Positions 309 through 49,371 of a stretch of DNA of 64,000 nt are shown here, one piece after another. The position numbers and the translations under genes are program-made. The notes under the pieces were generated by a model. The model worked only from the letters and a program-made list of their open reading frames with translations, was not told the DNA's origin and did not search any database. How positions within the stretch are numbered: the first letter of the stretch is position 1; the number at the start of each line of letters is the position of its first letter. This DNA is from a virus (Duplodnaviria > Caudoviricetes): positions 4,498 through 68,497 of the IMG/VR virus record IMGVR_UViG_3300039431_000490; one strand, written 5' to 3'.

Positions 309-605
309 ATGATATATTTCGATCAAGAAACTCGAGCATTTACTGGAGGAGCTACATTAACTAAGGAAGCTTTCGGTAATCATAAACTATCTGGTACTAA
401 ATTAGCTGATCAATATTCGAAAAATAGAGCACTTGCACTTAAAGGTCGTACTGCAAGTCAGTTAATTAAAATGCGTAATCCTCAAATAAGTGGATATAAT
501 ATAACTGATAGTAGAAAAGCATTTATTAACTCTGCTTTAGCTAAAAGAAATTCAAATCTAACTAAATTAGGTATTCCGATGCCTTCAAATGCAACTAAGA
601 TATAA
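309..605 (+). CDS. Small basic protein with shared leader MIYFDQETRAF (putative head-internal protein)
   Basis: ORF track; leader nearly identical to those of ORFs at 3196, 3651 and 4146. Confidence 0.7.
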   Translation: MIYFDQETRAFTGGATLTKEAFGNHKLSGTKLADQYSKNRALALKGRTASQLIKMRNPQISGYNITDSRKAFINSALAKRNSNLTKLGIPMPSNATKI

Positions 606-737
606 TCATACTCCCTCTTAATTGAGGGAATATGATCCAACTGAGCCCTATTCTCAGTAACTGGGTAAAGGTCCGGAAGTCATGAGCCGGACCTCCAGTT
701 TTAAGTAATAGGGTAATATAATTAATAGGGTAATTAT

Positions 738-1745
738 ATGAAAACTATAAGAATCAATGAAATTGATCTAATCTCCTATAGTGAGATTAATTTAAGAAAA
801 TTATTTACTAAAAGTAACTTAGATTATGTAAATTTCTGGCAAGAATATGTAATCTATTGCATACATAATGATGTAAATGATAAATCTTATATAGGTCAAG
901 CTAAAGATTTCTTCGGTAGATTCTTATTTGATGGAGAGTTAAGTCATTTCAATGGATACTTAGATCATAGAATAAATGAAGGTGGATATATCTTATATAA
1001 AGCATTAGATAAGTATAAATCCAGATCATTTACAGTACATATAATAGATGAAGCTAATTCAGATCAAGAACTTAATCAAAAAGAAAAATATTGGATTGAA
1101 AAGCTTCATACTTGTATATATGATCCAGTATGTTGGGGATATAATATGACTTGGGGAGGAGATGACTGTAGTCAACTTCATAGTGATAAAGCTTGGAAAT
1201 CGAGAGCTGTGAAAGGTAATGGTGATGTAGCTTATATGCTACATACTCCTGAAGCAAGAATTAAAGCTGAACAGACTTGTATTTCTAGATATGGAATGAC
1301 TAGTCAGGATTTAATGAATTTACCAGAAGTAGCATCGAAAGCTATAAGAAAGTCATTAGATACTAGATCAAAATTATATGGAGATAATGGAGCTGGAGCC
1401 ATGAATACTACTGAAGTTTGGAAAGCTAAAGCTTTAGCTTGGGGTGGAGATGTTATGGGTCCATGTCATACTGAGGAAGCTATTAATAAAAGAGTTGCTT
1501 CTAGAGTATTAGGTAATATACTATCATATATAGATTGGCTGCACTCTGAAGGAGCTCCTAATAATATTACTTTTGAAATTTATTGGAATTGGGCTGACGG
1601 TAAGTGGAGTGATTCCAATTTTTTAGGCCATCTCAAAAGTATATTGAAATATTTGGAGATTATGAGGTTGGATCATCGATGGACCGCAGAGTTAGATAGT
1701 ATATTTAGTGAATTAGAGTTAAATAAAGATAAATATTTAGTATGA
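738..1745 (+). CDS. Free-standing GIY-YIG homing endonuclease (Seg-like)
   Basis: VIYCIHN...SYIGQA (GIY-YIG variant), conserved R, 'ELNQKEKYWIEK' Glu helix and 'GYNMTWGG' motif; C-terminal HT.E..K repeats resemble DNA-binding modules. Confidence 0.9.
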   Translation: MKTIRINEIDLISYSEINLRKLFTKSNLDYVNFWQEYVIYCIHNDVNDKSYIGQAKDFFGRFLFDGELSHFNGYLDHRINEGGYILYKALDKYKSRSFTVHIIDEANSDQELNQKEKYWIEKLHTCIYDPVCWGYNMTWGGDDCSQLHSDKAWKSRAVKGNGDVAYMLHTPEARIKAEQTCISRYGMTSQDLMNLPEVASKAIRKSLDTRSKLYGDNGAGAMNTTEVWKAKALAWGGDVMGPCHTEEAINKRVASRVLGNILSYIDWLHSEGAPNNITFEIYWNWADGKWSDSNFLGHLKSILKYLEIMRLDHRWTAELDSIFSELELNKDKYLV

Positions 1746-3193
1746 GTCAGATCAGATTTTCTTTAGGATTATTTGATACTACTAGTTTAGCTGCAGATGG
1801 ATCAAATATTCCAAGAAGATCATGTGAGGAATATTTACAGTCAGCTAAATATAAAGAAATGATGAGGAATAAAACTGCCATAGGCGGTTTAACTCATAAA
1901 GATAGGAAATTAAGACCTGAGTTGAAAGGTATAGTTGGAATGGATGATCAACAGATTATCAATGAAAATGCCTTATTTTATATAACCAGACTTTATTTCA
2001 AAGAAGGTAGTAATTTTCTATATGCTGACTGCGAAACTTTCGATCCGGATTTATTTGCAGGTAAACGACGTGAAAATATCTTAAATTTACAAGGTCAACT
2101 ACTATCTGGAGTACGGATGGCAGTATCTGTTGTTATTCAAGCTTTATGGTCTAAACGTGGAGTTGCTGAGAAAATTATTGCTATTAAAGGTGCTGATTTT
2201 ACTCAAAATCCTTCATTTAAGGGAGCTGGAATGACAGGAGATATTAAAGTGTTTTCAGAGATTCTAGATGATAAGTATTCAGATGAAGAGATTAAATCTT
2301 TTAGCAATACTGAATATGATCTAGTGACTAAAGCTTATAATCTGGAGTCCGAGATAAAAGTATATTCTGAAGGCGAACCCCTCTTCGAAGGAATTTTAAA
2401 GGCTTATCCAGATCAAAAAGAGTTCTCATATAATGAAATAGTGAGATTCTATGGTCAAGGAAGTGAACAAGAAAAAGATGTTCGAGATAAACAAGGTTAT
2501 TATGTAACTCGCGATAAATTGGCTGAAGCTAAAACTAATCGAGGTGAGTTACCAGATGAAGATCCTCTATATAAGCAGATACAAGAATATGTAGATGCTG
2601 ATGATAGAGAATCTCTACAGTTAGCTTTCAAGTCAAATCGCAATACAATCCAAAATCTTGTAAACGCAGTTCCTAAAGATGATCCTAATCGTGAAGAACT
2701 AATTAAAAGTAAGATTGCTGAATTCCTAGAGAATAATCCAAATAAAGAATATTCTCAAGCATCTACAGTTGCTGAAAGAATCCGTACACAGGAGCAACCT
2801 AGATATACTAAATTTGCTAGAACAATTAAAGTTTATAAACAATACTGGACTGCAAATAAGCTTTCTGATCTTCAGAAATATCAATGTAAGATGTTATTCT
2901 TACAAGATATCAATATGATGATCAAAGAAGTTCTTCCATTAGTAAAGAAAGGTCAGACATTTAACTCACTGTATGGATTAAATCAGTATGGAGCTGAGAT
3001 AAAAGCTTCTGCTCTTACATTATCTAACTCATATCGAAAACTGCTGATTGCAGAAGGTATGATGAATTTTGTACCGAAAGGTATATATGGAGAGTGGGTA
3101 ATCGATATCAGTGATTTCTATCAAAAACTTCTCCAATTTACTTTTGGTGAGCAACTTTCAGAAATTCAAATTAATTTGATTAATTTAAAATAA
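1742..3193 (+). CDS. Prohead (head maturation) protease, T4 gp21/HK97-type fold, with long C-terminal extension
   Basis: 'AIGGLTH' (His), 'SGVRMAVS' (Ser) and 'ADFTQNPSFKGA' (Asp/Pro-Ser) align in order and spacing with the gp21-like LGELNHP / GVSSRG / D.V..PS motifs. Confidence 0.75.
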   Translation: MSQIRFSLGLFDTTSLAADGSNIPRRSCEEYLQSAKYKEMMRNKTAIGGLTHKDRKLRPELKGIVGMDDQQIINENALFYITRLYFKEGSNFLYADCETFDPDLFAGKRRENILNLQGQLLSGVRMAVSVVIQALWSKRGVAEKIIAIKGADFTQNPSFKGAGMTGDIKVFSEILDDKYSDEEIKSFSNTEYDLVTKAYNLESEIKVYSEGEPLFEGILKAYPDQKEFSYNEIVRFYGQGSEQEKDVRDKQGYYVTRDKLAEAKTNRGELPDEDPLYKQIQEYVDADDRESLQLAFKSNRNTIQNLVNAVPKDDPNREELIKSKIAEFLENNPNKEYSQASTVAERIRTQEQPRYTKFARTIKVYKQYWTANKLSDLQKYQCKMLFLQDINMMIKEVLPLVKKGQTFNSLYGLNQYGAEIKASALTLSNSYRKLLIAEGMMNFVPKGIYGEWVIDISDFYQKLLQFTFGEQLSEIQINLINLK

Positions 3194-3195
3194 TT

Positions 3196-3648: not shown

Positions 3649-3650
3649 TT

Positions 3651-4121: not shown

Positions 4122-4145
4122 TAATCTATAACTAGTTATAAAATT

Positions 4146-4613: not shown

Positions 4614-4668
4614 TTCTATAACTGTCGAGTGGATTGATTTCCACTCTTCAGTCTAATTATATACGAAA

Positions 4669-5511
4669 ATGACTGAAACTTTTAGTGAGATTAGAAATTA
4701 TAGGAACTCTGATTTTAAATCACTTAAAAATAAGCAGGTAATCAATTATTTAAATAAATTATCTAGAAAAGGTGATAAGGTAGTAAGAGTATCAACTAAG
4801 GGTAATTTTATTAAAATTGATAGTGATTTAAAACATTATAGAAATAGTATTAGTCAGTTAGGTGAAATAAATAATTTAACTGGATTTGCATTAGTAAATC
4901 GTAGAGGTGAAAAACCAATATTTTTAGACACGTCTAAACATAATCTAAATCCAGTAAAAAGATCAAATTATCATAAGTCACCTAAAACTGCTAATAAATC
5001 CCATCCAGCTACAATTTCAGGTCCGAGTTATAAAGGACACAAACAGTCTGGATTACTTACTTATAATAATCTTACTGGAGGTATAAATAACCAAAGTTAT
5101 CAACCTACTACTAAAATGACTAATAATAATCTAGTTTCATATACTAAACAATTTGCATATTCTAAGATTGGAAATGCATTATCAACATCTAAAGCTTGGA
5201 TAAATTATGGTGCAGATAAATTTGCACGTAATTCTGAAAGTATAGCTCATGCTGCTGGTAATGCTGGAATGATTTTAGGAGCAGTTGGTGGAACCATGGG
5301 AATTGCAGCTTCATTAAGAAATGACCAATTTAATGTGGTATTTAAACTTAATGGAAAAGTATTTAATCCAACTGTTAGAGCTAAATCACCAAATGATGCA
5401 GTTACTAAAGTAAAAGCTAAACATCCAGGAGGTGAACACTATCGTGCATTCAGAATGCCTCATCAAGATGAAGCAGCACAAGATTACAAAGAAGCTTTAG
5501 AAAATGCGTAG
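4669..5511 (+). CDS. Basic hypothetical protein; possible internal start at 5116 (MTNNNLVSYTKQFA)
   Basis: ORF track; internal LVSYTKQFA matches the start of ORF 6525 (LVQYTKNFT); Gly-zipper segment follows. Confidence 0.65.
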   Translation: MTETFSEIRNYRNSDFKSLKNKQVINYLNKLSRKGDKVVRVSTKGNFIKIDSDLKHYRNSISQLGEINNLTGFALVNRRGEKPIFLDTSKHNLNPVKRSNYHKSPKTANKSHPATISGPSYKGHKQSGLLTYNNLTGGINNQSYQPTTKMTNNNLVSYTKQFAYSKIGNALSTSKAWINYGADKFARNSESIAHAAGNAGMILGAVGGTMGIAASLRNDQFNVVFKLNGKVFNPTVRAKSPNDAVTKVKAKHPGGEHYRAFRMPHQDEAAQDYKEALENA

Positions 5512-6532
5512 TCAAATTATAGGTGGAGTATCTGGTGGATTCTTAGGTGGAATTACTGGGATATTATCACAAAGGAATTATGAAGATAAGCTGCGACTGG
5601 AACATCCGGATTGGGATGAACGTCAAATCCGTAAAGCAGTTAATATCAGAAAAATCAAGGCTGCAGCTATAGGTTCAGTTACTGGAGGAGGTTTAGGGGT
5701 TGCTGGAGGATATGGATATAATCAACTACCAGCTACATCTAGAAAAGTACCATTCGGAGTAAAGTTCAAGTCTCCAGTTCAGTCAACTAAAAATAGCTTA
5801 CAAAGGAATTCTTCTAATTTAGCTAAAAAGACTGGAACAGTAGATCATGATATTGAATCAAGACTTCCTAATACCAGAGATAATCATCCACGTCCAGAAA
5901 GACGTCCATATTTAGGTAAAGGTAGATCTGAAGCTTATCAACGTCAAGCTGAGGTAGTTTATAATGCTAAAGAACGTTATAAGTCAATGGCTGAATCCGG
6001 AGAGTATACTATTAATAGTCCAGAATTAACTGAAGCTAAGAGAGTCGCTGACCTTGAATATAAGAGATTGAGAGCTATGCCTGAATTTGAAGGCACTAGA
6101 GATAGACTGATAGTGCATCCAAAATATAAACAGGGTCCATCTCAGATTGAGAAATTTAATCAGAGATTTAATAGATCTAGACTAACTCAGGTATCTCAAC
6201 CTAAATCAACTAATCCAAAGGATCCTAAAGATCCTGGAAACGGATCACTAGGATTCGATCCCTCACAATTATTCGGAGGTAACGTTAACGTAAAGAAGTC
6301 CGATATCATAAACTATACAGTTTGGTTCTCATCTTCAGATCGGGTAGTTTGTATGTTTTATGATAAAGGTGAAGGAACTGATCACTTAACTAAACCTTGC
6401 ACCTTAATTGAGGTACCAAAGATTAAACGAGAATTTCAAGATAAAGCTAAACGCAGTCATTGGAGAATCGTTGATTTGGTAGTTGCTCAAGATATGGATG
6501 AGATTGATGATTTAATAGAAGAATATGAGTAG
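5504..6532 (+). CDS. Hypothetical basic protein with N-terminal Gly-zipper segments
   Basis: ORF track; GGVSGGFLGGITG and GSVTGGGLGVAGG motifs. Confidence 0.7.
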   Translation: MRSQIIGGVSGGFLGGITGILSQRNYEDKLRLEHPDWDERQIRKAVNIRKIKAAAIGSVTGGGLGVAGGYGYNQLPATSRKVPFGVKFKSPVQSTKNSLQRNSSNLAKKTGTVDHDIESRLPNTRDNHPRPERRPYLGKGRSEAYQRQAEVVYNAKERYKSMAESGEYTINSPELTEAKRVADLEYKRLRAMPEFEGTRDRLIVHPKYKQGPSQIEKFNQRFNRSRLTQVSQPKSTNPKDPKDPGNGSLGFDPSQLFGGNVNVKKSDIINYTVWFSSSDRVVCMFYDKGEGTDHLTKPCTLIEVPKIKREFQDKAKRSHWRIVDLVVAQDMDEIDDLIEEYE

Positions 6533-6755: not shown

Positions 6756-6804
6756 ATTCACTTTCCCACTTGATTGTGGGTTAGTGACCTAAACTTTATT
6801 GAAC

Positions 6805-7491: not shown

Positions 7492-7574
7492 TTTTTTACT
7501 CGAAGAGTGAACGAAATGTTGAAAACCTTAAAGTTGGGAAAGTTGAAACACAATTTAAATCTATATTGAAAGTT

Positions 7575-9746
7575 ATGGCTACATACGAAAATCTAAAAGT
7601 ATTTGATGATCTTTCTAGCCTTAGAAGATTTCTTGGTAACGCATTTTCTTACCGAGTAGATGATGAAAATGAAAAAATCTACTGGGTAATTGAAAATGAA
7701 GGTGACGAGGAAGTACCTTGTAGTACCTCTGCTTACATTTCATTTGATGTAATGAATGGAAATGTTCCTGGTGCTGGTCAAGTAGGTCCAACAGGACCTC
7801 AGGGACCTCAAGGAGAAAAAGGTGAGAAAGGTGATAAAGGTGAAAAAGGTGAACCTGGTGACGGTCAAGTAGGACCTACAGGTCCTCAGGGACCTCAAGG
7901 TGAACAAGGATCTCAGGGACCTCAAGGTGAAATCGGTCCAACTGGTCCTCAAGGTCCCCAAGGTGAACAAGGTATTCAAGGTATCCAAGGTGAGCAAGGA
8001 CCTCAGGGACCTAAGGGTGAACAAGGATTACAAGGTGAACAAGGCATCCAGGGTCTTCAAGGTGAAGTAGGTCCAGTTGGTCCACAAGGACCTCAAGGTG
8101 AGCAGGGTATACAAGGACCTCAAGGTGAAAAAGGTGAACAGGGAGCTCAGGGTATTCAAGGTGAGAAAGGTGAGAAAGGTGATCCAGGTGAAGGATTCAA
8201 AATTTCTGAGTCTTTCAAATCTGAGGAAGAGATGAGAGCTGCTAACGTAGTAGCTGGTCATTTCTATATTATACTTCCTGATGATAAGTCTGCTGAAGAA
8301 TATGGTTATGTTTACATGTACACTGGCAGTGAGTTTATGTTTATCGTAGATATGTCAGTTGCAGGTGAACAAGGTATTCAAGGACCTAAGGGTGAACCTG
8401 GTGATCCAGGTGTTCAAGGACCTGAAGGACCTCAGGGTATTCAAGGTCCAGAGGGACCTCAGGGACCTAAAGGTGATCCAGGTGAGCAGGGTATCCAAGG
8501 ACCTCAAGGTGAAGTAGGTCCAGTTGGTCCACAAGGACCTCAAGGTGAGCAAGGACCTCAAGGTGAGCAAGGACCTCAAGGAGTTCAAGGTGAACAAGGA
8601 CCTAAAGGTGATCCAGGTGAGCAGGGTATCCAAGGACCTCAAGGTGAACCAGGTCCTGCAGGTATACAAGGACCTCAGGGACTTCAAGGTGAAAAAGGTG
8701 AAAAAGGCGATCCAGGTGAAAAAGGTGAAAAAGGCGATCCAGGTGAGCAAGGTCCAATAGGTCCTCAGGGTCCTGCAGGTCAAGATTACGATGCTGAGAA
8801 ATATGCAGCTCTAGTCGCTCGCGTCGAAGCTCTTGAGGAACTTTATAAAGCAGATCACCCAGTTGAAGTAGATTCTGTTGAATCATTCAAATCCGCTCTT
8901 CAGTCTGGTGAAAAATATATTAAGTTAACTGATGAGTTAGATCTCAGTGAGAGACTTGATGTCACTAAGGATGCAGTAATTACTCTCGACTCTAATATCA
9001 ATGAGTCAGCTCAACTTGGACTTGTTATAAATAATGGTGCTAAAGTAACCATAAAGGGACTTGGTACTATTAGAAATACCGTTGCAGATGGTTATGCTCT
9101 TGCAGTTGCTGGCGGATCTGAATTGACTCTTGATGGTGGAATCAATGTCAAGTCCGATCGAAATATCGGTGCAACAGTATCTAGTAACTCTAAGCTGATC
9201 GTTAATGATGCTAATATGCAATCTCAGGAATGCAATATCTTTGCAGGTTCTAAGAATGCTGAAGTAGAAATTAATGGAGGTACTTTTGAAACTGTAGATA
9301 ATGCAGTAGTCATGGGTAATGGTAATGCTGGCAATGAAGGAAATCACATTGTTATTAATGGTGGTACCTTTAATGGTCACATTACTTCATCTGGTTACAT
9401 CGCTTGTGGTATCTATGTACCAAATAATGATATAGTAGAAGTCAATGGTGGTACCTTCAATATCGAAGGTGGTTGTGGTATCTGCGCACGTGCTGGTCAG
9501 GTAACTGTCGGTAAGGATGCAGTTATTAATACCACTGGAGATACTGTAGGTAAGGTAGGTGACTCAAGAGTCGTTGTACCTTGCTCCGCAGTTGTATTCG
9601 ATGCTGAAGCTGCTTATCCTGGACTTGATGCAGATGCTAAGATCATCATTGAAAATGGTGCTCAGCTTAGCTCTGAAGATAGCCATGGTGCAGTTTATGA
9701 GCTACCAGTCGGTGCCGATCCTTCAAGAATCGTTGATAATCGATAA
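7575..9746 (+). CDS. Collagen-like fibre protein (Pro/Gln/Glu-rich G-X-Y) with C-terminal beta-helix-like domain
   Basis: Two long GPQ/GEQ/GEK blocks; C-terminal repeats of 'V.INGGTF' typical of right-handed beta-helix folds. ATG 7575 is preferred over TTG 7566. Confidence 0.85.
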
Positions 9747-9818
9747 TCTAAATAACTTAGGAGCTCCTAATCGAGCTCTTAAGTTCAACAAACCTTTTTA
9801 TTTTAATATTTTGAAATT

Positions 9819-10127: not shown

Positions 10128-10138
10128 TATCTGAGTTT

Positions 10139-18533: not shown

Positions 18534-18585
18534 AAAAAACTAATATTAACAACTAATATATTTAAACTTTATTTCAGGTTAAATT

Positions 18586-20922: not shown

Positions 20923-20981
20923 TATACTATATTTGGAGGTGATTGAATTCACCTCTAAATTCTATAAGATTAATAATAATT

Positions 20982-22417: not shown

Positions 22418-22600
22418 TATAATTAAATTTATCATAACTTGGGAGTCCTTAATTAGATTCCTATGTCATTTAATAATGGTGATATTATTAGAGTAGATAG
22501 TGATTCAGAATCAGATACATTTACTATTTAAATGTATATAATTTAGGGATTCATGATAGAGTCCCTAAGTTCAAACTTTATTAATAAATCTTCCAAAATT

Positions 22601-24598: not shown

Positions 24599-24660
24599 TT
24601 AGAGTAACCAGGTTGATTCCTGGTTATTCTACTAAATAAATAATAAGAAATTTTCAAAAT

Positions 24661-27006: not shown

Positions 27007-27057
27007 TATATAATTAGCATCTCTTAATTGAGGTGCTAATTTCCAAGTAATATTATT

Positions 27058-27995: not shown

Positions 27996-30317
27996 ATGGC
28001 AGTAACAAAAATCTATGAACCATATGTACGGGTTAAAGAGGTAATCAGAGATTATCCTACTCTCCTGAACATCGATGGTACATGCAACATCGGAGGTGTC
28101 ATTGTTGCTCCAACAGGTCCTCGTCTTGCTTTTGTTAATGGACCTCAGGATTTTCTGGACAAATATACCATTGATGGTAGAGTTCCTCGCAATGCTGACA
28201 TTACTTTCTTAAATGCTTATTATCTGTCATTCTCTGCAGGTTTGGTTCTTGCACGTTCAATGAATACAACTGCTGTTGATGGATTATTCTTCACTGTTGA
28301 GAATCTTACTCTGTACAAGATGTTCATCGAAATCGATGAAGAAACATTATGGACAGTTAAAGTAGGTGAGAAGTATTACTTCTATAATGATAAGAGTAAG
28401 AAGCCTAAGGACTTCTATACTCGTATGAAGAATAAAGATCAGGATGATAAGGCAGTCGAATGGATTGCAAATAATGATGAGGAAACTTTCTTAGCTAAAG
28501 ATGCAGCAATTTTTGTTGATAGCTTACAGGCACTTGCAGTAGCTATTAATGAAGCTGATGAAACAGCGGAAGCTAGTTATGATGCATTTGCTGGAGCAAT
28601 TGTATCAAAGAAAGATCTTTATTCAGCTAACATGAATTCTTATGGACTTACCATTGAAAATGGTAAGGCTGGAGGTTATTCTAATGGCGTAGTACTCAAA
28701 GCTGAGCACCTACTTTATAAAGATAACGTAGCTCTAACTAATCAGTATGATATTACTTTTGCTGATGATGCTGTAAATACCGATGGCAGCTTTAAGAAGA
28801 GCTTTATCTTTACATTCGGACAATCAGCTTACTATCATGGTGCAGTTGATCGTTCAGCATATCAAGAGTATAGCATCCTTAAGGTTGATACTGTTGCAGA
28901 AGTTTTAGCTTCTATTAATGGATACGCTGGAATTGCTGCAGGATATGAGTCCAAAGATAATTATAAGAAGATCAATATTTTCTGCAGTGATGGAAATGAA
29001 ATCTATGCAGAAGATGGGAAAGATCCAGATGGAGTAGCTTACAATGTAATCACTACTTCTGATGATTGGGTTGAGATCCATACTGATTACAATACTAATA
29101 AGAAGCTCTTTGAGGTCTATCCAGATGATCCTCAGGAAGGTAACAATTTCCGTCTTGCAGTCGGTCCAGATGAAGGGACTCTATTCTATCTCACTCTTAA
29201 GAATGAGAAAGATGAGCAGGATACCTATGAAGCATCCTTACTATCTGATGGACTTGATTCTGCAGGTGTAAATGCTTACATTGAGAATCTTAATACTCTG
29301 AGAATTGGTTATACTTTCTTAGTTAACCAAGACTTTAAATATCAAGATTTCGAAGTCGGTGAAGCTTCTATTGAGCAGATTGAAATCAAGATCAATCAGG
29401 CGTGGTCATTCGGTGACTCTGGTTTAAGTCTTGAGTCTTCTAAGGATATGGCTTGCCGTGTAAATGGCTTGTACGTTCTTGAAGATCAGGAACTTTATGA
29501 TATCGAGTACCTATCCTCATTTGGTATAGTTGATCTACAGTTCATCAAGAATTATACTTTAGTTGGTAAGAATAACTATTGGTTCACTCCAGTTGATATT
29601 CCTTGGAATCGTACCAATAAGAATTCCATCAAGCAGTATTTCTTGAATGTAGATAATACTTCTAATGTACTTGCAATTGGTCCATTCGATAAGAATACTG
29701 GTTTGACTGGCTGGATGTTTAAGCTTGCTCCTACATCACTTTATTATACTAAGGTAATGAATAATAGAGCTGCTAATTCAGAGTATGCTCCAGTATTTGA
29801 CATCACAAATGGTATCCTTGATTATACTAACCCTTACTACCTACTTGGTGCAGATGAGCGTGAAGCTCTTCTTAACTTCAAGTGTCCAGTAAACTTTGTT
29901 AAGTATAATCAACGTGCAGATGTCTATTATTTCAATGATAATAGAACTCACCAGACTGCTGCTAATCCTGCGGGTGAGGAACAGAATCGTCGTCTCATCA
30001 ATAGAATCAATAAGGATCTTAAGAGGATCCTTGAGCCATTCAAGGGACGTCTAAATACTGTTACTACTCGAATGGATGTTGAAACAGTTATTGACCGTTA
30101 TTTCCAACAGTATATTCTTCCTCAGAATTACACAGTCGATGCTTATGATCGTAAGTGTAATGAAGAGAATAATACTCCGGATATTATCACGGCTAACAAG
30201 CTTAAGGTCTGGGTTGGTGTACGTCTGAATAATGCTATTAAGTATATTGATGTACTTGATGAAGTATTTGCTATTGGAATGGAATTCGATAGCAACCTGG
30301 CACAGTCAGCTTATTAA
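27996..30317 (+). CDS. Contractile tail sheath protein
   Basis: N-terminal EPYVRVKE; C-terminal 'EEQNRRLINRI...CNEENNTPDIITANKLKVWVGVRLNNAIKYI' sheath signature. Confidence 0.85.
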   Translation: MAVTKIYEPYVRVKEVIRDYPTLLNIDGTCNIGGVIVAPTGPRLAFVNGPQDFLDKYTIDGRVPRNADITFLNAYYLSFSAGLVLARSMNTTAVDGLFFTVENLTLYKMFIEIDEETLWTVKVGEKYYFYNDKSKKPKDFYTRMKNKDQDDKAVEWIANNDEETFLAKDAAIFVDSLQALAVAINEADETAEASYDAFAGAIVSKKDLYSANMNSYGLTIENGKAGGYSNGVVLKAEHLLYKDNVALTNQYDITFADDAVNTDGSFKKSFIFTFGQSAYYHGAVDRSAYQEYSILKVDTVAEVLASINGYAGIAAGYESKDNYKKINIFCSDGNEIYAEDGKDPDGVAYNVITTSDDWVEIHTDYNTNKKLFEVYPDDPQEGNNFRLAVGPDEGTLFYLTLKNEKDEQDTYEASLLSDGLDSAGVNAYIENLNTLRIGYTFLVNQDFKYQDFEVGEASIEQIEIKINQAWSFGDSGLSLESSKDMACRVNGLYVLEDQELYDIEYLSSFGIVDLQFIKNYTLVGKNNYWFTPVDIPWNRTNKNSIKQYFLNVDNTSNVLAIGPFDKNTGLTGWMFKLAPTSLYYTKVMNNRAANSEYAPVFDITNGILDYTNPYYLLGADEREALLNFKCPVNFVKYNQRADVYYFNDNRTHQTAANPAGEEQNRRLINRINKDLKRILEPFKGRLNTVTTRMDVETVIDRYFQQYILPQNYTVDAYDRKCNEENNTPDIITANKLKVWVGVRLNNAIKYIDVLDEVFAIGMEFDSNLAQSAY

Positions 30318-30433
30318 TTGATATAACATGAATTTTTGATCTCAAAGTTCAGGTTCAATAAAGTTTATTGAGATCATTCTCCCAGTGGATTGAGTTTCAC
30401 TGGGAGTTCCTAATAAATATAAATATTCTAATA

Positions 30434-33910: not shown

Positions 33911-33983
33911 AGCTTGAAACTAATCATTATATAGGCAGTTACTATTAATTTAGTGACTGCTACCTAATCAATTAAATTAAATT

Positions 33984-39226: not shown

Positions 39227-39397
39227 TAAGACTAAACGAAATGCTCACAACCTTATACTTGTAAGAGGTTGTAACTTTGTCGTAATAAACTACTGTCAGC
39301 CTATTGATTTAGACTGGCAGTTCCATAACATTGGATACTTGATACTATACTGTTAACCTATAAGGCTAGGTATGTTCATGTAAGGTGATATTATGTC

Positions 39398-39432
39398 AAG
39401 GGTAGCAACATAGTTTGTTACCCTTTACTTTT
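39398..39432 (+). terminator. Probable intrinsic terminator downstream of tube gene
   Basis: AAGGGTAGCAA-CATAGT-TTGTTACCCTT stem followed by TACTTTTT. Confidence 0.6.
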
Positions 39433-39634: not shown

Positions 39635-39687
39635 TTTTCCACTCTCCTGATCGAGAGTGGATTAACCATAAACTTTATTGAACAAAA

Positions 39688-40575
39688 ATGCATATATTAT
39701 GTCAAACATTGCCGAGTGGTAAACACTATCCATTCGAGTCAATTGAGGTCAAGCCAATGACCTTCGCTCAGGTACTAGAATACCTTGAAAATGTACCTGA
39801 TGATAAAAAGAATCCAATTGAAAGGTATTATTTCGATTACTGCATTGTAAAAGATGAAGATCCAAATGTAGATTCATTACTCCTGATTGATATGGAATAT
39901 GTGATTTACATGAAGAAAGCATTAACAGTGGCAGAAAACCTTGAATACAATTCAGAGATAGAATGCCCACGTTGTGGTGAACATCTTCACTATCATGTAA
40001 GTCTTGCAGGAATCGAATGGAATCATATGGATTCTCAAGCTCTTATGGGACTTGATATCATGTTTGGAGGTCAGATGATGACAGTTAGAATGCCTACTGT
40101 CATGGAATTTATGGAAGTCTTTAAGAAATACCGACTGTATAAGAAGGTTACTGATATGCGTATAATCAAGCTTATCAGTTTATTCGAGCAATCAGGAATG
40201 TATCTTCAAAAGATTGAAACAATGGTTGTAAATGCTACTTATAAAGATGTAGCAGCTTTATTCATGTTAGATGGCATATATTTCAATTTTGTTAAGCCAA
40301 TGCACCTTACTTGTAGTAAGTGTGTAGAGATGTATCAACCAACAGATCGGGAGATCTTCGATGCAAAAGCTAAAAATAATATCAAACCAGAGGATGATCT
40401 CCCCGAGGAATTAATGTATCAACTTAAACTGGAACATGGAGGCATCGAGATAGGTCTTGAAGACGTAGTCTCGTCATTTTTTCGTGATATCAATGAAAAT
40501 AACTCCCTTACTCCAGAAGAAATTATTCCTCGAAAAGTACGCGAAGATGCAGAATATCGAGATGTATACGATTAA
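39688..40575 (+). CDS. Tail/baseplate hub assembly chaperone (T4 gp26-like) with two CxxC motifs
   Basis: CPRC and CSKC; 'VRMPTV' motif; position between tube and tape measure. Confidence 0.65.
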   Translation: MHILCQTLPSGKHYPFESIEVKPMTFAQVLEYLENVPDDKKNPIERYYFDYCIVKDEDPNVDSLLLIDMEYVIYMKKALTVAENLEYNSEIECPRCGEHLHYHVSLAGIEWNHMDSQALMGLDIMFGGQMMTVRMPTVMEFMEVFKKYRLYKKVTDMRIIKLISLFEQSGMYLQKIETMVVNATYKDVAALFMLDGIYFNFVKPMHLTCSKCVEMYQPTDREIFDAKAKNNIKPEDDLPEELMYQLKLEHGGIEIGLEDVVSSFFRDINENNSLTPEEIIPRKVREDAEYRDVYD

Positions 40576-40672: not shown

Positions 40673-40720
40673 TGGAACTGCTCAGTTGATTCTGAGCAAT
40701 TCTTCTAAAATATTTTTATT

Positions 40721-43700
40721 ATGGGATTACTAAAAGCAGGATTTAATATTGGAAAAGGACTGGTAGTCGGGCACATCAAAGATAAAATAAAAGATACTGT
40801 ATCCAATAAAGTTGAAAATGTAGCTTTTGGTCAAATGACCAAAGACATGTCTGACTCATCAGTTGAACTGCTACAACAGAAAGCTCATAAGCTGCAAGCA
40901 TCAGGTAATAGCTTCGGGAAAATCAGAGGTTATTACATGGATAAAGCTGCGACTAGAGAAAAATATAAAAGACTTCGTAAGGAACTCGGTAAAGATGAGT
41001 TTAAAAGACGTGGTTTAGCTTATCAAGAGAAACAAGATAAGCAAAGATTAAAAGGTGCACGTTCTGAAGCTCGTAGTTTAACTGCGATCTGGAAGAATGG
41101 TATCCAATCAGTTTTCACTTTACTCGGTGCCACATTTAGAGCAGCTAATACTGATAAACGTCCTAAACTTACGAATTCTAAGATTGAGTTAAATACTCAG
41201 TTAGAAGTTAAATCAGCCGAAGCTAAAGCTCAGGCTCAACAAGCTCGTGATGTAGCTGCAAGTATTAAGATTCCAGCTCAAGCTTCCAATGATAACTTAC
41301 GAGAGGTTTATGCTAGATCAAAACCAGTCGAGCAGAAACTTGATACTATAATAGATCAACTTAATACTCTTAACAAAGAACAGAATGATACTCGAAAGAA
41401 TTCATTGGAACTAGTTAAGATAAATAAAGCAGACTTTGAAGCTAAAGCTAATCGTCAAGATCAGCTATTAAATTCTCTTCAAAGAATGCAATCAAAAGTT
41501 GACAGTACTGTTCAAAGATCTGAAGACTCAATTAAAAGGGTAAAGACAGCTAAGATCAGTCCACTCGAGATTGTAAGTCAAGTTGGGATTGGTGGAGTTT
41601 TGAATATATTCAAACTTCTTAAAACCATCATCGGTGATCTTAATGCAGCTAAAGCTCCTGAATTAACTGGTGAGGTTGAAACTAAGAAAGCTACACTAGA
41701 TGCTATATCTGATTTAAAGAAAGATCTTAAATCAATTCAAAAAGAAGAGGGAAGTGAAGGTCAAGTACAGGTAATTCAACAACAAATGGCTGATCTAAAT
41801 AAAAGTCTGTTATTAGATCAGAAGAAGTTTAAAGAATTAACCACTCGACAGTTACTTACAGCAGTTTCAACTGTCAAGGAATCTGACTTATCACGTGCAG
41901 AAAATACTGAGATGCTTAGAGTACTAGCTCAAAAGCAAGAAGAATTATCTGAAACTGATAAGCAGCTTCTTAAAGCTAGGATTGAAGAACAGAAACAAAA
42001 ACTTCTTGATAAACAGAAAGATCTAGTTAAGAAAAAGTACGAAGATCAGATAAAGAAACTTGAGTTAAAATTAGCTGATACTGAGTTTAAGGGTAAAAAG
42101 AGAACTAAACTTGAAAATAGACAAGCTAAACTTAAAGCTAAAATTGAAGATGCTAAATTAACTAAAGAGGCTAAAAAGCAATTAGAAGGATCCAGATTTA
42201 ATCTTATTAAGAGATTAAAAGATAGAAAAGAAAAGAAACAAGAAGGTACACTTAAAGAACTTCTTTCAGTTACTAAGAAGATTCACTCTGATCAAAAGAA
42301 GAATTTTTGGGGCATTTTTAAAAAAATTGCTACATTTGGAGGTATAGCTGCCATTATTTATGGAATAGTAAAAGGAGGTCAAGGAGTTACTAGATGGATT
42401 AATGAGCACCTTTTTAAACCAGTAAAAGATTGGTGGAATGAAGAAGGTGGTATCGGAGAATCTTTAAAAAATTGGTGGGAAGGTCCAGATGGAAAAAGTG
42501 GGGCATCTGCTAAAATAACCTCATTTTTTACTAATCTATGGACTCAAACAACTGAAGCTATACCATTACTTAAAAATATAAGTGAAATTATCTCCAAATT
42601 TTGGAAAAAATATTCTGGAGAAGATGTAAGAGATCAATTAGCTAAATCCACTGGATTGGATACAGTAATTGATACTAAAAAATACAATGCTGATGAATTG
42701 CAGCAATTAAATAAAGTAATCTCTGATGGTAAGTTCACTGAAGATAGTTTAAAGCAGTTAGAAAGTGATTCAAGTACTAAGGATTTAGCTGCTAAGATAA
42801 AATCTAATGGAGATTATACTAAACTAGTTACTGCTGATGAAATTGGTAATAGTTTTGTGAGAAAAGTTGGAGTTAGTAATGAACTTGGATCAGCGAGTAC
42901 CACAAAAACTATGATATCTGATGCTGCTAGTACGAAAACAGGTAAAGCTGTTACAACAGTAGCTTCAGTTGGAGGAATGGCAGCTGCAGGTGGAGCTATT
43001 GGATCAGTAATTCCAGGAGTAGGTACTGCTATAGGTGCAGGCATAGGAGCAGCTTTAGGATTAGTAGTAAGTGACTACTTAAAGACTCAAGCTCATCTAA
43101 ATTCTTCAGATGTATTATCTAAAACTGACGAGATTAAAAATGGATTATTATCTAAATTAAAAGATATTGATTCAGATCACGATGGCAAAATTTCAATTAA
43201 GGAATACGAATCAGGTAAAGGAATTTTAACTAATGATGATAAGTTTTTCTTAAAAGAATTATTCAAAACTCAAGAAGGTAAAAATTTACTTGAATCGCAA
43301 GTTTCAACTAAATTGAACCAAGAGATTGCTGGATACTATCCCCAATATAAGTTAGAAGGGATGGGAACTCTTACTAAAATGGGAGTACAGCAAGCTCAAC
43401 GTGATGTGGACTACATGAATCTAGCTACTGATAAGAATTTACCTTGGTATCGAAGATTAATGTACTCCATGGCTGGATCACATGCTGGTAGATGGAATGG
43501 AGGTATTACATTACCTGGGGAAACTACCTGGTTAGGTGATGCTGGAAAGTCAGAATTGGCTGTTACTCCTAAAGGTGATATTATAGTATCACCTCCTACT
43601 ACAACTAAATATGATTTTCCTGCTGGAACTAAGATTTATCCTGATGCTAATGCGATATTAGCTAAAGTTCCAAAAGTAGTACCTGATCCGATACAATATC

Positions 43701-45211
43701 TTAAAGAAAATCCAAATTTACTAAAAGATGGTAATCCTAGATTACTAGAAACTGGTAAAGAGGATCGGGATTCATCTTGGTGGCCTAAAAAAACACAAGA
43801 TCAAGCTATAAAGCAATCAGATGGAATTACTGATGATCTTGCTGCTCGTCAAGCCTATTTAATGAGGTGGACTCAAGAGAATATGGGACTCACACCTGAG
43901 CAGTCAGCTGGAGTAGCAGGTGTATTTACTGCTGAGTCAAGAGTTAAACCTAATATATATGGAGGAATTGAAAAATACTCTGAAAAAGAGCATCCTGATA
44001 TTCTAAAGTATAGAGCTAAAGGTATTAAATATTTACCAAATGGATATGGAGCAGGATTAGCACAGTGGACTAATACTGATGACTTTAAACATTATGGTAA
44101 ACCTGGATTTAATGATACTTTTGGTTGGAAAACTGATATTCTTAATAGTATCAATGCAAATCGAGTAGCAACTGGAAGACCTAAAGTCACCGCAGTTGAA
44201 AATTCTTCAATGGATGATCAGTTAGTAGCCTTTAAGGATTCGATTGAAACTGGACGTAAAAAAGGTTTCTTAGAAAAATTGAAAGCTGCAAGAACTGTCG
44301 AAGATGCCACTGATGTGATGTTAAGAGGTTATGAGAATGGTGGTAGAGGATCACTTGCATCCAAAGAAGCTATTGATAAATATACCTGGGCAGGTGGATA
44401 TGCTGGATCAATGAAATCTAGAGTTGGCCATGCTAAAGCTGCTTTAGCTAATTGGAAGCGATTCGAAGGGATGCCAATCAATATTGAAGAGCATCTTGGA
44501 GATATGTCAGATGGAATGGGTAAAGGTAGAAAAGATAGAGGTTCTTATAAAGCTGAAGATGCTGGAGAATGGTATCAGAATATGGGTGGCAAGATTAGTA
44601 ATACAATTACAGATATAGTTGGAAATATCAAAGATTGGATTACTGGTAAGTCAGCTATAGCTGGAGAAGCTCTTTATGGTTCAGCTAATTCAGATGATGG
44701 ACTACTAAAGAAACTAAATGTATTTTGGGGTAAACATGTAGGTAAATATGTAGAAGGTAGAGATAAAAGAGTTAAAGTAGATGAATTTGGGAATGAAATT
44801 CAACCTAAGTCTAAAGAAACTCAAAAACCTACACAGATCGCTACTCAGTCTACTTATACCCCGGAAGGCAGTCCGGATTTTATAGGATCTAGGCAACAAT
44901 TATTCCAACCAGTAAAGAGTCCATTAATTCAAGCTAAAGTTGAAGCAACTCACAGTCCAGGATTAGCTGGAATTAAATCTCCAATACTAACTCCAGATAC
45001 TGAAGCTGGACCTCAACAATCAGCATTAGCTAAACAATTGGAAATAATGAATAACATTGATCGCCAGCTCAATGATCAACCTTGGAATATGTCACGTGAT
45101 AATGGCACTTCTATTGGACAAATCAGAGGTGGTGATACTAATACTACTATCATCAATAATAATATGGTTATTGATGATGCTAAAACTGTAGAAATGCGAA
45201 ATAATCAATAA
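40721..45211 (+). CDS. Tape-measure-like protein with phage tail lysozyme (Phage_lysozyme2-type) domain
   Basis: Long helical Lys-rich body; Gly-rich hydrophobic segments; 'GGITLPGETTWLGDAGKSEL...PAGTKIYP' TMP module; 'SAGVAGVFTAES...GAGLAQWT...RGYENG' lysozyme motifs. Confidence 0.85.
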   Translation: MGLLKAGFNIGKGLVVGHIKDKIKDTVSNKVENVAFGQMTKDMSDSSVELLQQKAHKLQASGNSFGKIRGYYMDKAATREKYKRLRKELGKDEFKRRGLAYQEKQDKQRLKGARSEARSLTAIWKNGIQSVFTLLGATFRAANTDKRPKLTNSKIELNTQLEVKSAEAKAQAQQARDVAASIKIPAQASNDNLREVYARSKPVEQKLDTIIDQLNTLNKEQNDTRKNSLELVKINKADFEAKANRQDQLLNSLQRMQSKVDSTVQRSEDSIKRVKTAKISPLEIVSQVGIGGVLNIFKLLKTIIGDLNAAKAPELTGEVETKKATLDAISDLKKDLKSIQKEEGSEGQVQVIQQQMADLNKSLLLDQKKFKELTTRQLLTAVSTVKESDLSRAENTEMLRVLAQKQEELSETDKQLLKARIEEQKQKLLDKQKDLVKKKYEDQIKKLELKLADTEFKGKKRTKLENRQAKLKAKIEDAKLTKEAKKQLEGSRFNLIKRLKDRKEKKQEGTLKELLSVTKKIHSDQKKNFWGIFKKIATFGGIAAIIYGIVKGGQGVTRWINEHLFKPVKDWWNEEGGIGESLKNWWEGPDGKSGASAKITSFFTNLWTQTTEAIPLLKNISEIISKFWKKYSGEDVRDQLAKSTGLDTVIDTKKYNADELQQLNKVISDGKFTEDSLKQLESDSSTKDLAAKIKSNGDYTKLVTADEIGNSFVRKVGVSNELGSASTTKTMISDAASTKTGKAVTTVASVGGMAAAGGAIGSVIPGVGTAIGAGIGAALGLVVSDYLKTQAHLNSSDVLSKTDEIKNGLLSKLKDIDSDHDGKISIKEYESGKGILTNDDKFFLKELFKTQEGKNLLESQVSTKLNQEIAGYYPQYKLEGMGTLTKMGVQQAQRDVDYMNLATDKNLPWYRRLMYSMAGSHAGRWNGGITLPGETTWLGDAGKSELAVTPKGDIIVSPPTTTKYDFPAGTKIYPDANAILAKVPKVVPDPIQYLKENPNLLKDGNPRLLETGKEDRDSSWWPKKTQDQAIKQSDGITDDLAARQAYLMRWTQENMGLTPEQSAGVAGVFTAESRVKPNIYGGIEKYSEKEHPDILKYRAKGIKYLPNGYGAGLAQWTNTDDFKHYGKPGFNDTFGWKTDILNSINANRVATGRPKVTAVENSSMDDQLVAFKDSIETGRKKGFLEKLKAARTVEDATDVMLRGYENGGRGSLASKEAIDKYTWAGGYAGSMKSRVGHAKAALANWKRFEGMPINIEEHLGDMSDGMGKGRKDRGSYKAEDAGEWYQNMGGKISNTITDIVGNIKDWITGKSAIAGEALYGSANSDDGLLKKLNVFWGKHVGKYVEGRDKRVKVDEFGNEIQPKSKETQKPTQIATQSTYTPEGSPDFIGSRQQLFQPVKSPLIQAKVEATHSPGLAGIKSPILTPDTEAGPQQSALAKQLEIMNNIDRQLNDQPWNMSRDNGTSIGQIRGGDTNTTIINNNMVIDDAKTVEMRNNQ

Positions 45212-45258
45212 AGTTATAGGCATATTAATTTATGCCTATATCTCTAAAATATTAAATT

Positions 45259-46197: not shown

Positions 46198-46199
46198 TT

Positions 46200-47497: not shown

Positions 47498-48114
47498 AAT
47501 TTGGAAAAGTAACCGAAATTGTTGATTCTAATAAATTTATAGTAAAGTTTACTGTTGAAGATGACATTGAAGATGCCGTAGCATATCCAATTGATACTTT
47601 TGATGAGCCTAATGTAGGTGATCCAATTCAAATATATGGAATTGATACTATCTTTGGAATGTCATTTGTATATCAGAAACAAAGGCTATTTGATCATACT
47701 AGAATCAAACTTGGTGAACAAATGGTTGATGTCACTGATCATAATGTAACCATTACTTCAGCACTAGAAACTGAAGATGACGGTACTTACGGTGATTCCG
47801 ATGACGGTGTAAAAGTAGCAACTGGCAAAGGACGTACTATTGAGATTGATGCTGATGGTAAAATAGTAGTCCATTCTGGAAAAGACACTGAAGTTACTAT
47901 TGATAAAAATCTTAATATTGAAGTAAAAGGTGCAGCAAAAATAAATGTAACTAATAGCTGTGAATTAAAAGCAAGGACAGTTACTGTTGATACTAAAATA
48001 CTTCAAATTAAGGGTGCAAAGAATGTAGCTCCTAATCCAACTGGAGGTCCATTCTGTGCCATTAAAGTATGTCCATATACTGGATTACCTCATACTGGTG
48101 ACGTAGCGATGTAG
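47488..48114 (+). CDS. Central spike protein (gp5/gpV-like)
   Basis: N-terminal OB-fold (FGKVTEIVD...EPNVGDPIQI), beta-helix-like strands, C-terminal CAIKVCPYTGLPHTG apex. Confidence 0.75.
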   Translation: MELKFGKVTEIVDSNKFIVKFTVEDDIEDAVAYPIDTFDEPNVGDPIQIYGIDTIFGMSFVYQKQRLFDHTRIKLGEQMVDVTDHNVTITSALETEDDGTYGDSDDGVKVATGKGRTIEIDADGKIVVHSGKDTEVTIDKNLNIEVKGAAKINVTNSCELKARTVTVDTKILQIKGAKNVAPNPTGGPFCAIKVCPYTGLPHTGDVAM

Positions 48115-48116
48115 TT

Positions 48117-49328
48117 ATGAAAGTACAGTTAGATAGAACTTCTATATTATTTGAAGCTAATGGTATAGAGAGTCAAAAACAATCACTTGCAGATAGTGGA
48201 TTTATATCTATTAATGTTGATGGTGTAGATGATCTTAATGCAGTAATATCTGGTTCAGTTCCAATCCCTGGTATGTCAGTTTCAATAGACAAAGTCCCAG
48301 TACAAAAATATAATGTTGGAACAGATTATGAAATTACTACATATAATGTAAAATCAATTCATATTACAGTACCTGAAAATACTAGTGAAGAACCTATTCA
48401 GCAGAAACCAGTAAAAATTCAATTTACTGGTAAGGCTATCTTCCTAGATCCAGCCACTGAACTATATACCCTGATTCCTGCTGGAACTGATGTTCAAACA
48501 ATTGAGGTTACTCAATCTGCTAAAGAATTACAAATCGATGATGTTGATACCGGAGCTGCTGAGGATGAAGGTTCTTGTAGTATGGATGACTATGCAAGTG
48601 GTAATAATGCTGGATTCGTATTTGAGTTAGTTCTTGGGGTAGCAATGCCTGGAATAGTTGAATTAATATCTCAAGTTAAATCAATGGTGACTACCGAAGT
48701 TGAGTCATTGACTAAAGATATTAGTGAAACTATAAAGGAAATTAAGGATGAGCTATTATCAATAGATGATATGCTTAAACAAAAAGATCTTACTGAAACT
48801 AAACGTCAGCGACTTCTAAAAAAGAAAGAAAAACTTGAAAAACAAATCCAAGATCTTCAACAAGAATTAACTGACAAAGTTAATGACTTAAAAGAAAGAG
48901 CTCAACAATTACAACAGCAAGTACAGGATCAAGTAAAAGGGATAGTAGAAGGTAAAGGTAATCTTGGAATAGAAATAAAGAATCACCTTAAAAACATTAA
49001 AGATCAATCAGCTATCGTAATTAAAGCAATTCCTAAATTAGTAGTTAATGCTGGAACTGCTATTATTGAGCCAATGACCGCAATCACAGCTTGCGCAGTT
49101 GGTCCTTGTGTAACTGCTACGAATCCTGGACAGATACTTGGTACACTTACTAGACTTGGTCAGCAAGCTACAGCATTAAAAGAACCTATAAGTAGTCTGA
49201 AACAATCTGCAGAATTTCTTCAATTTAATGGAGATGTTGGTAAAAAGTATGGATTAGATAAAGTATTGAAACCAATTGAAATAGTTGAAAAAGGAATTAA
49301 TACAATTGCTAAACTTACTGGCAATTAA
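48117..49328 (+). CDS. Hypothetical baseplate-region protein with long coiled coil
   Basis: ORF track; Lys/Gln/Glu heptads. Confidence 0.7.
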   Translation: MKVQLDRTSILFEANGIESQKQSLADSGFISINVDGVDDLNAVISGSVPIPGMSVSIDKVPVQKYNVGTDYEITTYNVKSIHITVPENTSEEPIQQKPVKIQFTGKAIFLDPATELYTLIPAGTDVQTIEVTQSAKELQIDDVDTGAAEDEGSCSMDDYASGNNAGFVFELVLGVAMPGIVELISQVKSMVTTEVESLTKDISETIKEIKDELLSIDDMLKQKDLTETKRQRLLKKKEKLEKQIQDLQQELTDKVNDLKERAQQLQQQVQDQVKGIVEGKGNLGIEIKNHLKNIKDQSAIVIKAIPKLVVNAGTAIIEPMTAITACAVGPCVTATNPGQILGTLTRLGQQATALKEPISSLKQSAEFLQFNGDVGKKYGLDKVLKPIEIVEKGINTIAKLTGN

Positions 49329-49371
49329 TATTGGTTATTAAGTTAACCAATATTATCTAAAATATCATAAT

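Follow-up and report, generated by a model that had tools for sequence, protein, structure and literature searches.

Results

Genomic context

The window analysed here is a stretch of 64,000 nucleotides (bases 4498-68497 of a linear virus record of 68,497 bp) from an uncultured tailed phage of the rumen. The gaps between genes in its plus-strand late block hold a family of hairpins with a helix of 12 bp, a loop of 6 nt and a conserved C in the single-stranded tail. The record has a CheckV completeness of about 34%, so the absence of a gene from it proves little. Nearly all proteins encoded in the window were orphans when compared to Pfam and PHROGs. Those that could be recognised were collagen-like tail fibres and the following three:

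27996-30317: tail sheath
39688-40575: baseplate-hub-like protein
40721-45211: tape-measure protein with a lysozyme domain

Since tail sheath, baseplate-hub-like and tape-measure proteins were recognised, the phage is classified from its predicted proteins as a myovirus. Relatives of the sheath are common among gut and rumen assemblies, and the sequencing runs that contained phage sequence were mostly bovine gut metatranscriptomes. The sole relative in IMG/VR, G001, is a complete genome of 200,937 bp with terminal repeats, and therefore the phage group is jumbo and the window's record a fragment. The window genes lack Shine-Dalgarno sites and have A/T-rich leaders, which suits a host from the Bacteroidota, the phylum to which it probably belongs.

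An open reading frame (ORF) of 1069 aa in G001 (C1:26179-26574, locus L146) resembles the beta' subunit of RNA polymerase (RNAP; PF00623, E 5e-20), and a profile search of the window's record and G001 found no sigma-70 and no T7-type RNAP. The phage group probably has a multisubunit RNA polymerase of its own, as judged from these profile matches. RNase Z, RNase III and a CCA-adding enzyme were found neither in the window's incomplete record nor in G001, so host enzymes would have to serve.

The hairpin family is enriched and covarying

Hairpins were enumerated over the whole 68,497-bp record irrespective of loop sequence. Loops of 6 nt formed the largest class, with 31 of the 102 sense-strand hairpins at -7 kcal/mol or below, and 18 of these 31 read [ACT]-T-[GA]-A-[ATG]-[ACT]. 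All 17 sense-strand hairpins listed in the original prediction were present, those at 22449 and 39304 being imperfect. As a control we used 100 shuffles preserving local composition, with G.U counted as a pair. At least 11 of 12 pairs together with an N-T-R-A-N-N loop and a C at position +14 after the loop were observed 15 times, as compared to a shuffle mean of 0.14 (maximum 1), and the enrichment of such loops that had been predicted was thus found. When all 12 pairs were required there were nine hairpins against a shuffle mean of 0.01 (maximum 1), and at 11 or more pairs the opposite strand had none. These counts confirm that the hairpin family exists, that it departs strongly from chance and that it is confined to one strand.

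Standard pairs filled 93.9% of the pair cells in a gap-free alignment of 19 members, as compared to 45.5% after shuffling, and sliding the pairing partner left at most 45% of the cells paired. Both-sided changes were seen in all 12 pairs, with three to six different standard pair types per position. Covariance model R1 recovered the members except for one weak variant at 22441, and on the other strand it detected nothing convincing (61001-61042 at E 0.55). A search of the window with Rfam at the gathering score matched three tRNAs and no hairpin member. The pattern loop-N12-tail occurred in at least 118 stretches of viral_contigs; among the matches listed none had a stem, the best reaching 8 of 12 pairs, and they were rejected as chance matches.

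The members are given below in coordinates of the window unless stated otherwise; C-to-ATG is the distance from the conserved C to the start of the next long ORF.

606-639, plus strand: member with 12-position helix, loop TTAATT (618-623), tail TCCA; 39 bits with the covariance model
4622-4655, plus strand: member with loop TTGATT, a 2x2 internal mismatch and tail TCTA; C-to-ATG 16 nt
6758-6791, plus strand: member with loop TTGATT, a 2x2 internal loop and tail CCTA; -16.3 kcal/mol, z -4.4
9755-9788, plus strand: member with loop CTAATC, 13 bp, tail TCAA
10905-10938, plus strand: member with loop TTGAGC and tail TCAAATTAAT, which resembles the tRNA-Leu trailer ACAAATTAAAAT
20931-20964, plus strand: member with loop TTGAAT (the tRNA-Gly T-loop TTCGAAT without C56), tail TCTA
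22437-22470, plus strand: weak variant with loop TTAATT, a mismatched closing pair and the C at +13; missed by model R1
22541-22574, plus strand: member with loop ATGATA, 13 bp, tail TCAA
24601-24634, plus strand: member with loop TTGATT, 13 bp, tail ACTA; -19.4 kcal/mol, z -5.6
27012-27045, plus strand: member with loop TTAATT, tail TCCA; C-to-ATG 15 nt
30378-30411, plus strand: member after the sheath gene, loop TTGAGT (the tRNA-Leu T-loop TTCGAGT without C56), tail TCCTA
33933-33966, plus strand: member with loop TTAATT, tail CCTA
39292-39325, plus strand: member with loop TTGATT, one C.A mismatch, tail TCCA
39397-39430, plus strand: looser member, helix of 11-12 bp, loop CATAGT, tail ACTTTTT resembling the tails in relatives L124 and L130
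39635-39668, plus strand: member with loop CTGATC, tail ACCA
40674-40707, plus strand: member before the tape-measure gene, loop TTGATT, tail TCTAAAATAT; C-to-ATG 16 nt
45213-45246, plus strand: member with loop TTAATT, tail TCTAAAATAT; C-to-ATG 15 nt
49326-49359, plus strand: member with loop TTAAGT (the tRNA-Thr T-loop TTCAAGT without C56), tail TCTAAAATAT, which resembles the tRNA-Thr trailer TCTAAATAT
55532-55565, plus strand: member beyond those originally listed, loop TTGAAT, tail CCTA; 75 nt past the stop at 55459
L001 520-553 and 2809-2842, sense strand: two full members upstream of the window, from the unbiased scan

The stems had been described as 5-13 bp long, and turned out to be 12-bp helices throughout once 1x1 or 2x2 mismatches were allowed. 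Membership changed at three sites. Site 22441 is retained as a weak variant only, the hairpin at 39398 that had been set aside as non-fitting has the same 12-bp helix and C tail and is a looser member, and the supposed minus-strand member at 63100-63119 was removed, having a stem of 7-8 bp, a loop that can close to a tetraloop and a G at +14. U-tracts were missing from the family hairpins, as originally noted, whereas the facing terminators at 57712 and 58108 do carry them.

Anatomy of the element

Pairing among 20 members was 75-95% at helix positions 1-12 and then fell to 45% at position 13 and 5% at position 14. The closing pair was A-U in nine cases, C-G in six and G-C in four. Within the loop, L2 was U, L3 a purine and L4 A in all of these 20, and L6 was a pyrimidine in 19. 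The column with the highest information in the whole element (2.3 bits) lies outside the hairpin: it is the C at +14 after the loop, present in 19/20 members. This C is part of a tail with the consensus T-C-Y-A-A, where T is found at +13 in 14 and A at +16 in 18 members; a full CCA occurs in five. The columns from -45 to -14 each hold less than 0.7 bit, with no conserved upstream box.

A position weight matrix (PWM) of the tail alone, applied at the median score of the members, gave 144 and 179 matches on the two strands. The tail by itself is thus uninformative and recognition must take in the helix; as a stand-alone promoter or leader motif the tail PWM was rejected for this lack of specificity. 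We also dropped the loop TTGATT as a candidate -35 box, since its spacer to a TAAAAT-like hexamer is 14 bp and the loop is lacking in relatives. The Bacteroidota -7 promoter motif TAnnTTTG was not enriched (72 matches, 68 expected).

Read in the sense strand, the helices contain 17 G.U and 4 C.A pairs (binomial p ~0.004), and therefore the fold appears to act in the sense strand, most simply as RNA. An earlier count of about 12 to 4 had pointed in the same direction; the bias holds, with the number of G.U pairs corrected to 17.

The hairpins start 1-20 nt after stop codons, and the genes lying between members abut or overlap. Every sense-strand gap of at least 40 nt holds a member except those before 7566 and 18586. 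The minimum C-to-ATG distance was 15 nt; it was 15-16 nt in 8/20 members and extended to more than 100 nt in others.

Observations on individual gaps

One of the two member-free gaps, 18534-18585, contains CTAATATT twice and the leader word AAACTTTATT that is shared with other leaders. The other, 7492-7574, has TCTATATT 14 nt before the ATG at 7575 and a decayed inverted repeat around TTGAAA. In the gap 605-738, in front of a weak GIY-YIG-like gene (738-1745), member 606-639 is accompanied by two unrelated hairpins and a duplicated TAATAGGGTAAT; judged by its sequence, this region with the gene resembles a homing-endonuclease cassette that was inserted together with its leader. Two ORF calls run into hairpins. 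The start at 22553 is an artefact, its ATG sitting in the loop ATGATA, and the true start is likely 22603. The ORF called from 55456 runs through member 55532-55565 and likely starts near 55612.

Likeness to the tRNA genes of the phage

The three tRNA genes of the window served as comparators:

63615-63688, minus strand: tRNA-Thr, T-loop TTCAAGT; 3' context T73 followed by CTAAATATC (the gene reads T73-CTAAAT)
63021-63095, minus strand: tRNA-Gly, T-loop TTCGAAT; 3' context T73 followed by an encoded CCA
62837-62923, minus strand: tRNA-Leu, T-loop TTCGAGT; 3' context A73 followed by CAAATTAAAAT (the gene reads A73-CAAATT)

Without C56 these three T-loops become TTAAGT, TTGAAT and TTGAGT, which are exactly the hairpin loops at 49338, 20943/55544 and 30390. 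The conserved loop bases L2 U, L3 R, L4 A and L6 Y correspond to U55, R57, A58 and Y60, which are invariants of tRNA. The 12-bp helix of the family has the length of the coaxial acceptor and T-stem stack of tRNA that is measured by RNase P and related enzymes (PMC4919913). It is followed by an unpaired discriminator position and the C, and hairpin tails such as TCTAAAATAT and TCAAATTAAT resemble the trailers of the tRNA genes.

All 12 tRNA genes of G001 (102757-126213) have a C directly after the discriminator without a full CCA. For the window phage and G001 together this C was found in 15/15 tRNA genes, a full CCA only in tRNA-Gly of the window, whereas control tRNA genes of unrelated viral loci had the C in 7/12.

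As for the hairpin excluded on the minus strand (63100-63119, loop G-UAAU-C), it follows the stop of ORF 63125-63406 and precedes tRNA-Gly, whose first base is 4 nt away. An RNase P cut at this tRNA would leave the hairpin at the 3' end of the upstream message.

Conservation in relatives

Among the relatives, members were found in L122, L128 and L150, and the covariance model had no match in G001. In L128, whose sheath is 67% identical, the member after the sheath gene has an ortholog with loop TTGATT, tail GCTAAT and compensatory stem changes. Clear members were also found in L122/L123 and L150 (44% identity), with loops TTAAGT, TTGATT, TTAACT and TTAATT and tails N-C-T-A. Compensatory stem changes thus occur at orthologous sites, with the helix and the N-C tail kept in L128, L122 and L150. 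In L124, L125 and L130/G001 some gaps contain hairpins with a helix of 12 bp, or of 13 bp where the loop is a tetraloop, and N-C-T-T comes next. The comparison suggests that the widely kept part is the helix length with the N-C tail, and that the T-loop-like loop marks the window's own clade. As distant relatives swap the loop while keeping the helix length and the C tail, the loop is not the sole thing read. The earlier proposal of a protein-recognised element used across the late transcriptome therefore stands as far as a specifically recognised, strand-specific and single-stranded element is concerned, and needs correction in that recognition extends beyond the loop. Hairpins and terminators occupy equivalent positions in relatives, which points to RNA 3'-end formation as the shared role.

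Other searches concerned the phage itself. The 342-aa protein at 5504-6532 used as query had no relatives in viral_contigs and matched only two short contigs elsewhere, and megablast against phage records gave no match. Locus L126, whose G+C content is 57%, encodes a sheath relative of 44% identity in the same gene order, and no family hairpins were seen on this contig. Its base composition together with the same gene order indicates that the hosts of the phage group differ widely in base composition.

Ends of RNA-derived contigs

RNA-library contigs from two studies end 5-8 nt into the 5' arm of the member after the sheath gene, at 30382 and 30385, and in a relative's member the contigs of two runs share a single end point within the 5' arm, which a third run passes; these ends are a weak hint at most. 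A protective hairpin at the 5' terminus, formed by the opening bases of an mRNA whose promoter lies upstream, was also considered; no contig starts inside a hairpin, a finding that is not decisive. Uncovered stretches near the hairpins at 24613, 33945, 39647, 22553 and 27024 and differences in contig depth between the units that hairpins delimit were discarded, as depth is given as one figure per contig and gaps prove nothing. Contigs L127, L002/L003, L148, L151 and L152, which end at or near hairpins, were likewise not usable as evidence.

A candidate antisense element beside the post-sheath member

A second hairpin lies between the sheath stop and the member at 30390, with stem 30337-30345/30368-30376 and a 22-nt loop, AGTTCAGGTTCAATAAAGTTTA. 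Its stem covaries, and the core TTCAGGTTC is kept in L127, L128 and L147-152. Exact complementarity links its loop and 3' stem to 16 nt of the leader just before the ATG of gene 39688 (39668-39683) and to 15 nt of the leader just before that of gene 6805 (6790-6804); 10-11 nt of complementarity were found to the leaders 18563-18573 and 22573-22582. The word AAACTTTATT occurs five times, as compared to 0.55 expected. Based on this complementarity, hairpin 30337-30376 is a candidate antisense regulator of late-gene translation borne in a 3' untranslated region.

Discussion

A proposed tRNA-minihelix punctuation of late transcripts

In form the hairpins repeat the acceptor/T arm and 3' tail of tRNA genes that the phage itself carries, and their most likely role is therefore to mark the boundary between successive messages. 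We favour the reading that the element is a tRNA-minihelix mimic directing endonucleolytic punctuation of the late transcripts, because none of the others explains the exact helix length together with the loop invariants, the C and the parallels with the tRNA genes. We hold it as a tentative reading that may well be correct, in which the cleavage, the nuclease and the cut site are the predicted parts. The hairpin in the sense transcript of the late block would imitate the acceptor/T-arm half of a tRNA: a coaxial helix of 12 bp, a U-turn loop equivalent to a T-loop without C56 (U54 U55 R57 A58 N59 Y60), then an unpaired "discriminator" and a C74-N-A tail as in the phage's tRNA genes. A nuclease of the tRNA-maturation type could measure the helix and cut the long late transcripts at the base of the mimic. 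Candidates for the 3' side are an RNase Z-type enzyme or a different trailer nuclease, and RNase P might act on the 5' side. Such cuts would give the upstream message a hairpin that protects its end, and would leave the downstream message with an A/U-rich leader of 15 nt or more, which would suit translation in a host without Shine-Dalgarno sites. In its wider form, which we put forward with somewhat more reserve, about 20 or more bare minihelix mimics per 68 kb would recruit host tRNA-maturation nucleases and form a counterpart, in a bacterial virus, of mitochondrial tRNA punctuation.

Several observations weigh against this reading. Bacterial RNase Z is suppressed when cytidines directly follow the discriminator, and a matured 5' end is favoured by most enzymes of this type (PMC7479834), so a plain RNase Z cut on an mRNA hairpin with C74 is not the obvious reaction; both C74 and a long 5' extension are unfavourable for the known bacterial enzymes. 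RNase P uses C74, but its cut would fall on the 5' side. With 6 nt the loop is one short of the 7 of a T-loop, C56 is absent and the G53-C61 closing pair is not kept. L1 usually equals L6 (U/U, C/C or A/A), and a mismatch-closed U-R-A-N tetraloop or a generic Y-U-N-R U-turn fits equally well. C74 without CCA is also fairly common in phage tRNA genes (5/12 controls). The loops of L124, L125 and L130/G001 differ from those of the family (GTGA, GAGA, TAGT, TTAGTT or 7-nt loops, some of them GNRA-like tetraloops), and other equivalent gaps of L125 and L130 hold ordinary U-tract terminators. Model R1 had no match at E <= 10 on the complete G001, and in an unbiased hairpin scan of that genome a C was found at the equivalent place in 19-23%, about what composition gives and with no enrichment; the full family is therefore clade-specific. 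The RNA data are assembled contigs with no DNA control, whose breaks may reflect strain variation or reverse-transcription bias. The RNAP beta'-like protein of G001 makes polymerase-specific signals a live alternative.

Alternative explanations

The four candidate roles named in the original prediction can be ranked from these results. A processing or stabilisation site fits best, a boxB-like site does not fit, an N4-type promoter is disfavoured, and a terminator specific to a factor or polymerase is the main rival. As such a terminator, the element would be a stop-start module of the phage's multisubunit RNAP, in which the hairpin and the A/U-rich tail terminate or attenuate transcription when read by the RNAP or a bound factor. 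The hairpin would remain as a 3' stabiliser of the RNA, and transcription would restart from a compact promoter overlapping the tail T-C-T-A-A-A-A-T, giving short leaders. Such a module agrees with the polymerase gene of G001 and the absence of sigma-70 and T7-type RNAP from the search, with the U-tract terminators in some equivalent gaps of L125 and L130, with the eight members whose C-to-ATG distance of 15-16 nt fits a compact promoter, and with the G.U bias, which an RNA terminator hairpin would also show. There is a precedent in phiKZ, with 61 sites of a hairpin plus TTAT (PMC10914365), and a similar motif is found in 201phi2-1 (PMC11512511); as here, these are jumbo phages with their own RNAP and genome-wide intergenic hairpins followed by a short A/U motif. 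However, the phiKZ and 201phi2-1 motif conserves the stem CCYCCCC...GGGRRGG followed by TTAT, whereas in our family the stems are unrelated, the length, loop and a single C are conserved, and neither that stem nor TTAT was found. The family hairpins do not have the form of an intrinsic terminator either, their tails reading T-C-Y-A-A-A with no U-tract, although terminators with U-tracts are used by this phage where the block ends (57712 and 58108). A terminator needs no exact 12-bp stem, conserved loop or C exactly 14 nt past the loop, the information in the tail is too low for a promoter by itself, and the likeness to tRNA T-loops and trailers would be left unexplained. We therefore consider the stop-start module unlikely, while taking it seriously.

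It is improbable that the element is a regulatory hairpin bound through a Y-U-N-R U-turn loop by a phage or host protein or by another RNA, acting as a translational operator, stability tag or antitermination site. The conserved loop on variable stems would suit such a regulator, and the loop matches the Y-U-N-R U-turn, which is the motif of fast-pairing antisense loops; a candidate antisense element is present in the same late block. Yet the distance to the ATG, which ranges from 15 to over 100 nt, would suit a translational operator poorly, the exact helix length and the invariant C at +14 stay unexplained, and relatives keep the helix and the tail with unrelated loops. There is no GGA and hence no CsrA site: L4 is always A, and no member has G at both L3 and L4, as CsrA/RsmA would need. 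Nor does the family resemble lambda-type nut sites, as no boxA and no 5-bp stem with a GNRA-like pentaloop were found, and there are about 20 copies. Still more remote is a hairpin promoter at the DNA level, where extrusion of the inverted repeat would let a polymerase initiate at the conserved C-Y-A next to the hairpin base. The fixed distance from the hairpin base to C-Y-A, the common start context of a pyrimidine followed by a purine and the phage group's own polymerase speak for it, and there are precedents in the N4 virion RNAP and in the reading of template-strand promoters by the AR9 polymerase. N4 virion RNAP promoters, three sites in the early region, have a stem of 5-7 bp and a 3-nt loop with a central purine in template-strand DNA. 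They share with our family a hairpin that is fixed relative to the functional site with stems free to vary. The family differs in having about 20 late-gene sites, a 12-bp stem and a 6-nt loop, and the wobble bias of 17:4 favours the sense (non-template) strand where N4 uses the template strand. Placement 1-20 nt after stop codons is also that of 3' elements.

Comparison with known processing signals

Intergenic hairpins across a genome are also known from the RNase III sites of T7 and from the "hairpin rule" of Mimivirus, where they define mRNA ends and, in T7, act as a 3' stabiliser. Such hairpins require a double strand of some 20 bp or longer, and neither their loop nor their tail is conserved. 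In our family pairing ends at 12-13 bp with no lower stem, short of the two helical turns or so of an RNase III site. Among phage RNAs, P1/P7 C4 and P4 CI are processed by RNase P, in each case as single RNAs.

Plant mitochondria have t-elements and acceptor-stem-like stem-loops (Forner et al. 2007, PMC1920247). Along with the tRNA punctuation of animal mitochondrial transcripts, they are the closest parallel to the phage described here: the coding regions are separated by structures that mimic part of a tRNA, some of them no more than simple stem-loops. The mRNA ends coincide with the ends of the mimics in plants and are attributed to RNase P and RNase Z, whereas in the phage such ends are predicted only. 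t-elements are organellar, few per genome and mostly degenerate cloverleaves with a true T-arm (GGTTCRANYCC); the phage has about 20 copies in 68 kb, all of them bare 12-bp minihelices with a 6-nt loop without C56. Minihelices of the acceptor/T stack are RNase P substrates (PMC11221534). Like the family hairpins, these substrates (acceptor plus T stem with a 3' RCCA; PMC11221534, PMC4919913) combine a hairpin of acceptor/T-stack length with a single-stranded tail containing C74. They are artificial models, however, and position 75 is a C in only 5/20 family hairpins. If the weak evidence from contigs is followed, the hairpin stays with the upstream RNA, which is not what an RNase P cut would give. 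In the literature searched, we found no paper describing such an element in a phage. Judged by sequence and structure, the most fitting name for the element is a tRNA-arm-like punctuation hairpin, which would make it a further variant among the tRNA-like processing signals already known.

Implications

The rule of 12 bp followed by N and C improves the calling of gene starts whichever explanation applies, as two ORF starts in the window had been mis-called through hairpins. If the stop-start module holds instead of tRNA mimicry, the element would be the signal at which an uncharacterised RNA polymerase of rumen jumbo phages terminates and restarts. Functional mimicry would be the first tRNA-like punctuation on a genome scale outside organelles. 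It would also give a phage a novel means of controlling message boundaries, stability and leader length with no need for a promoter or classical terminator at each unit. The C74-only 3' context of the phage tRNA genes may be a functional signal as well. The element would represent a compact (~35 nt), sequence-free and structure-defined processing tag for hosts without Shine-Dalgarno-led translation, probably Bacteroidota.

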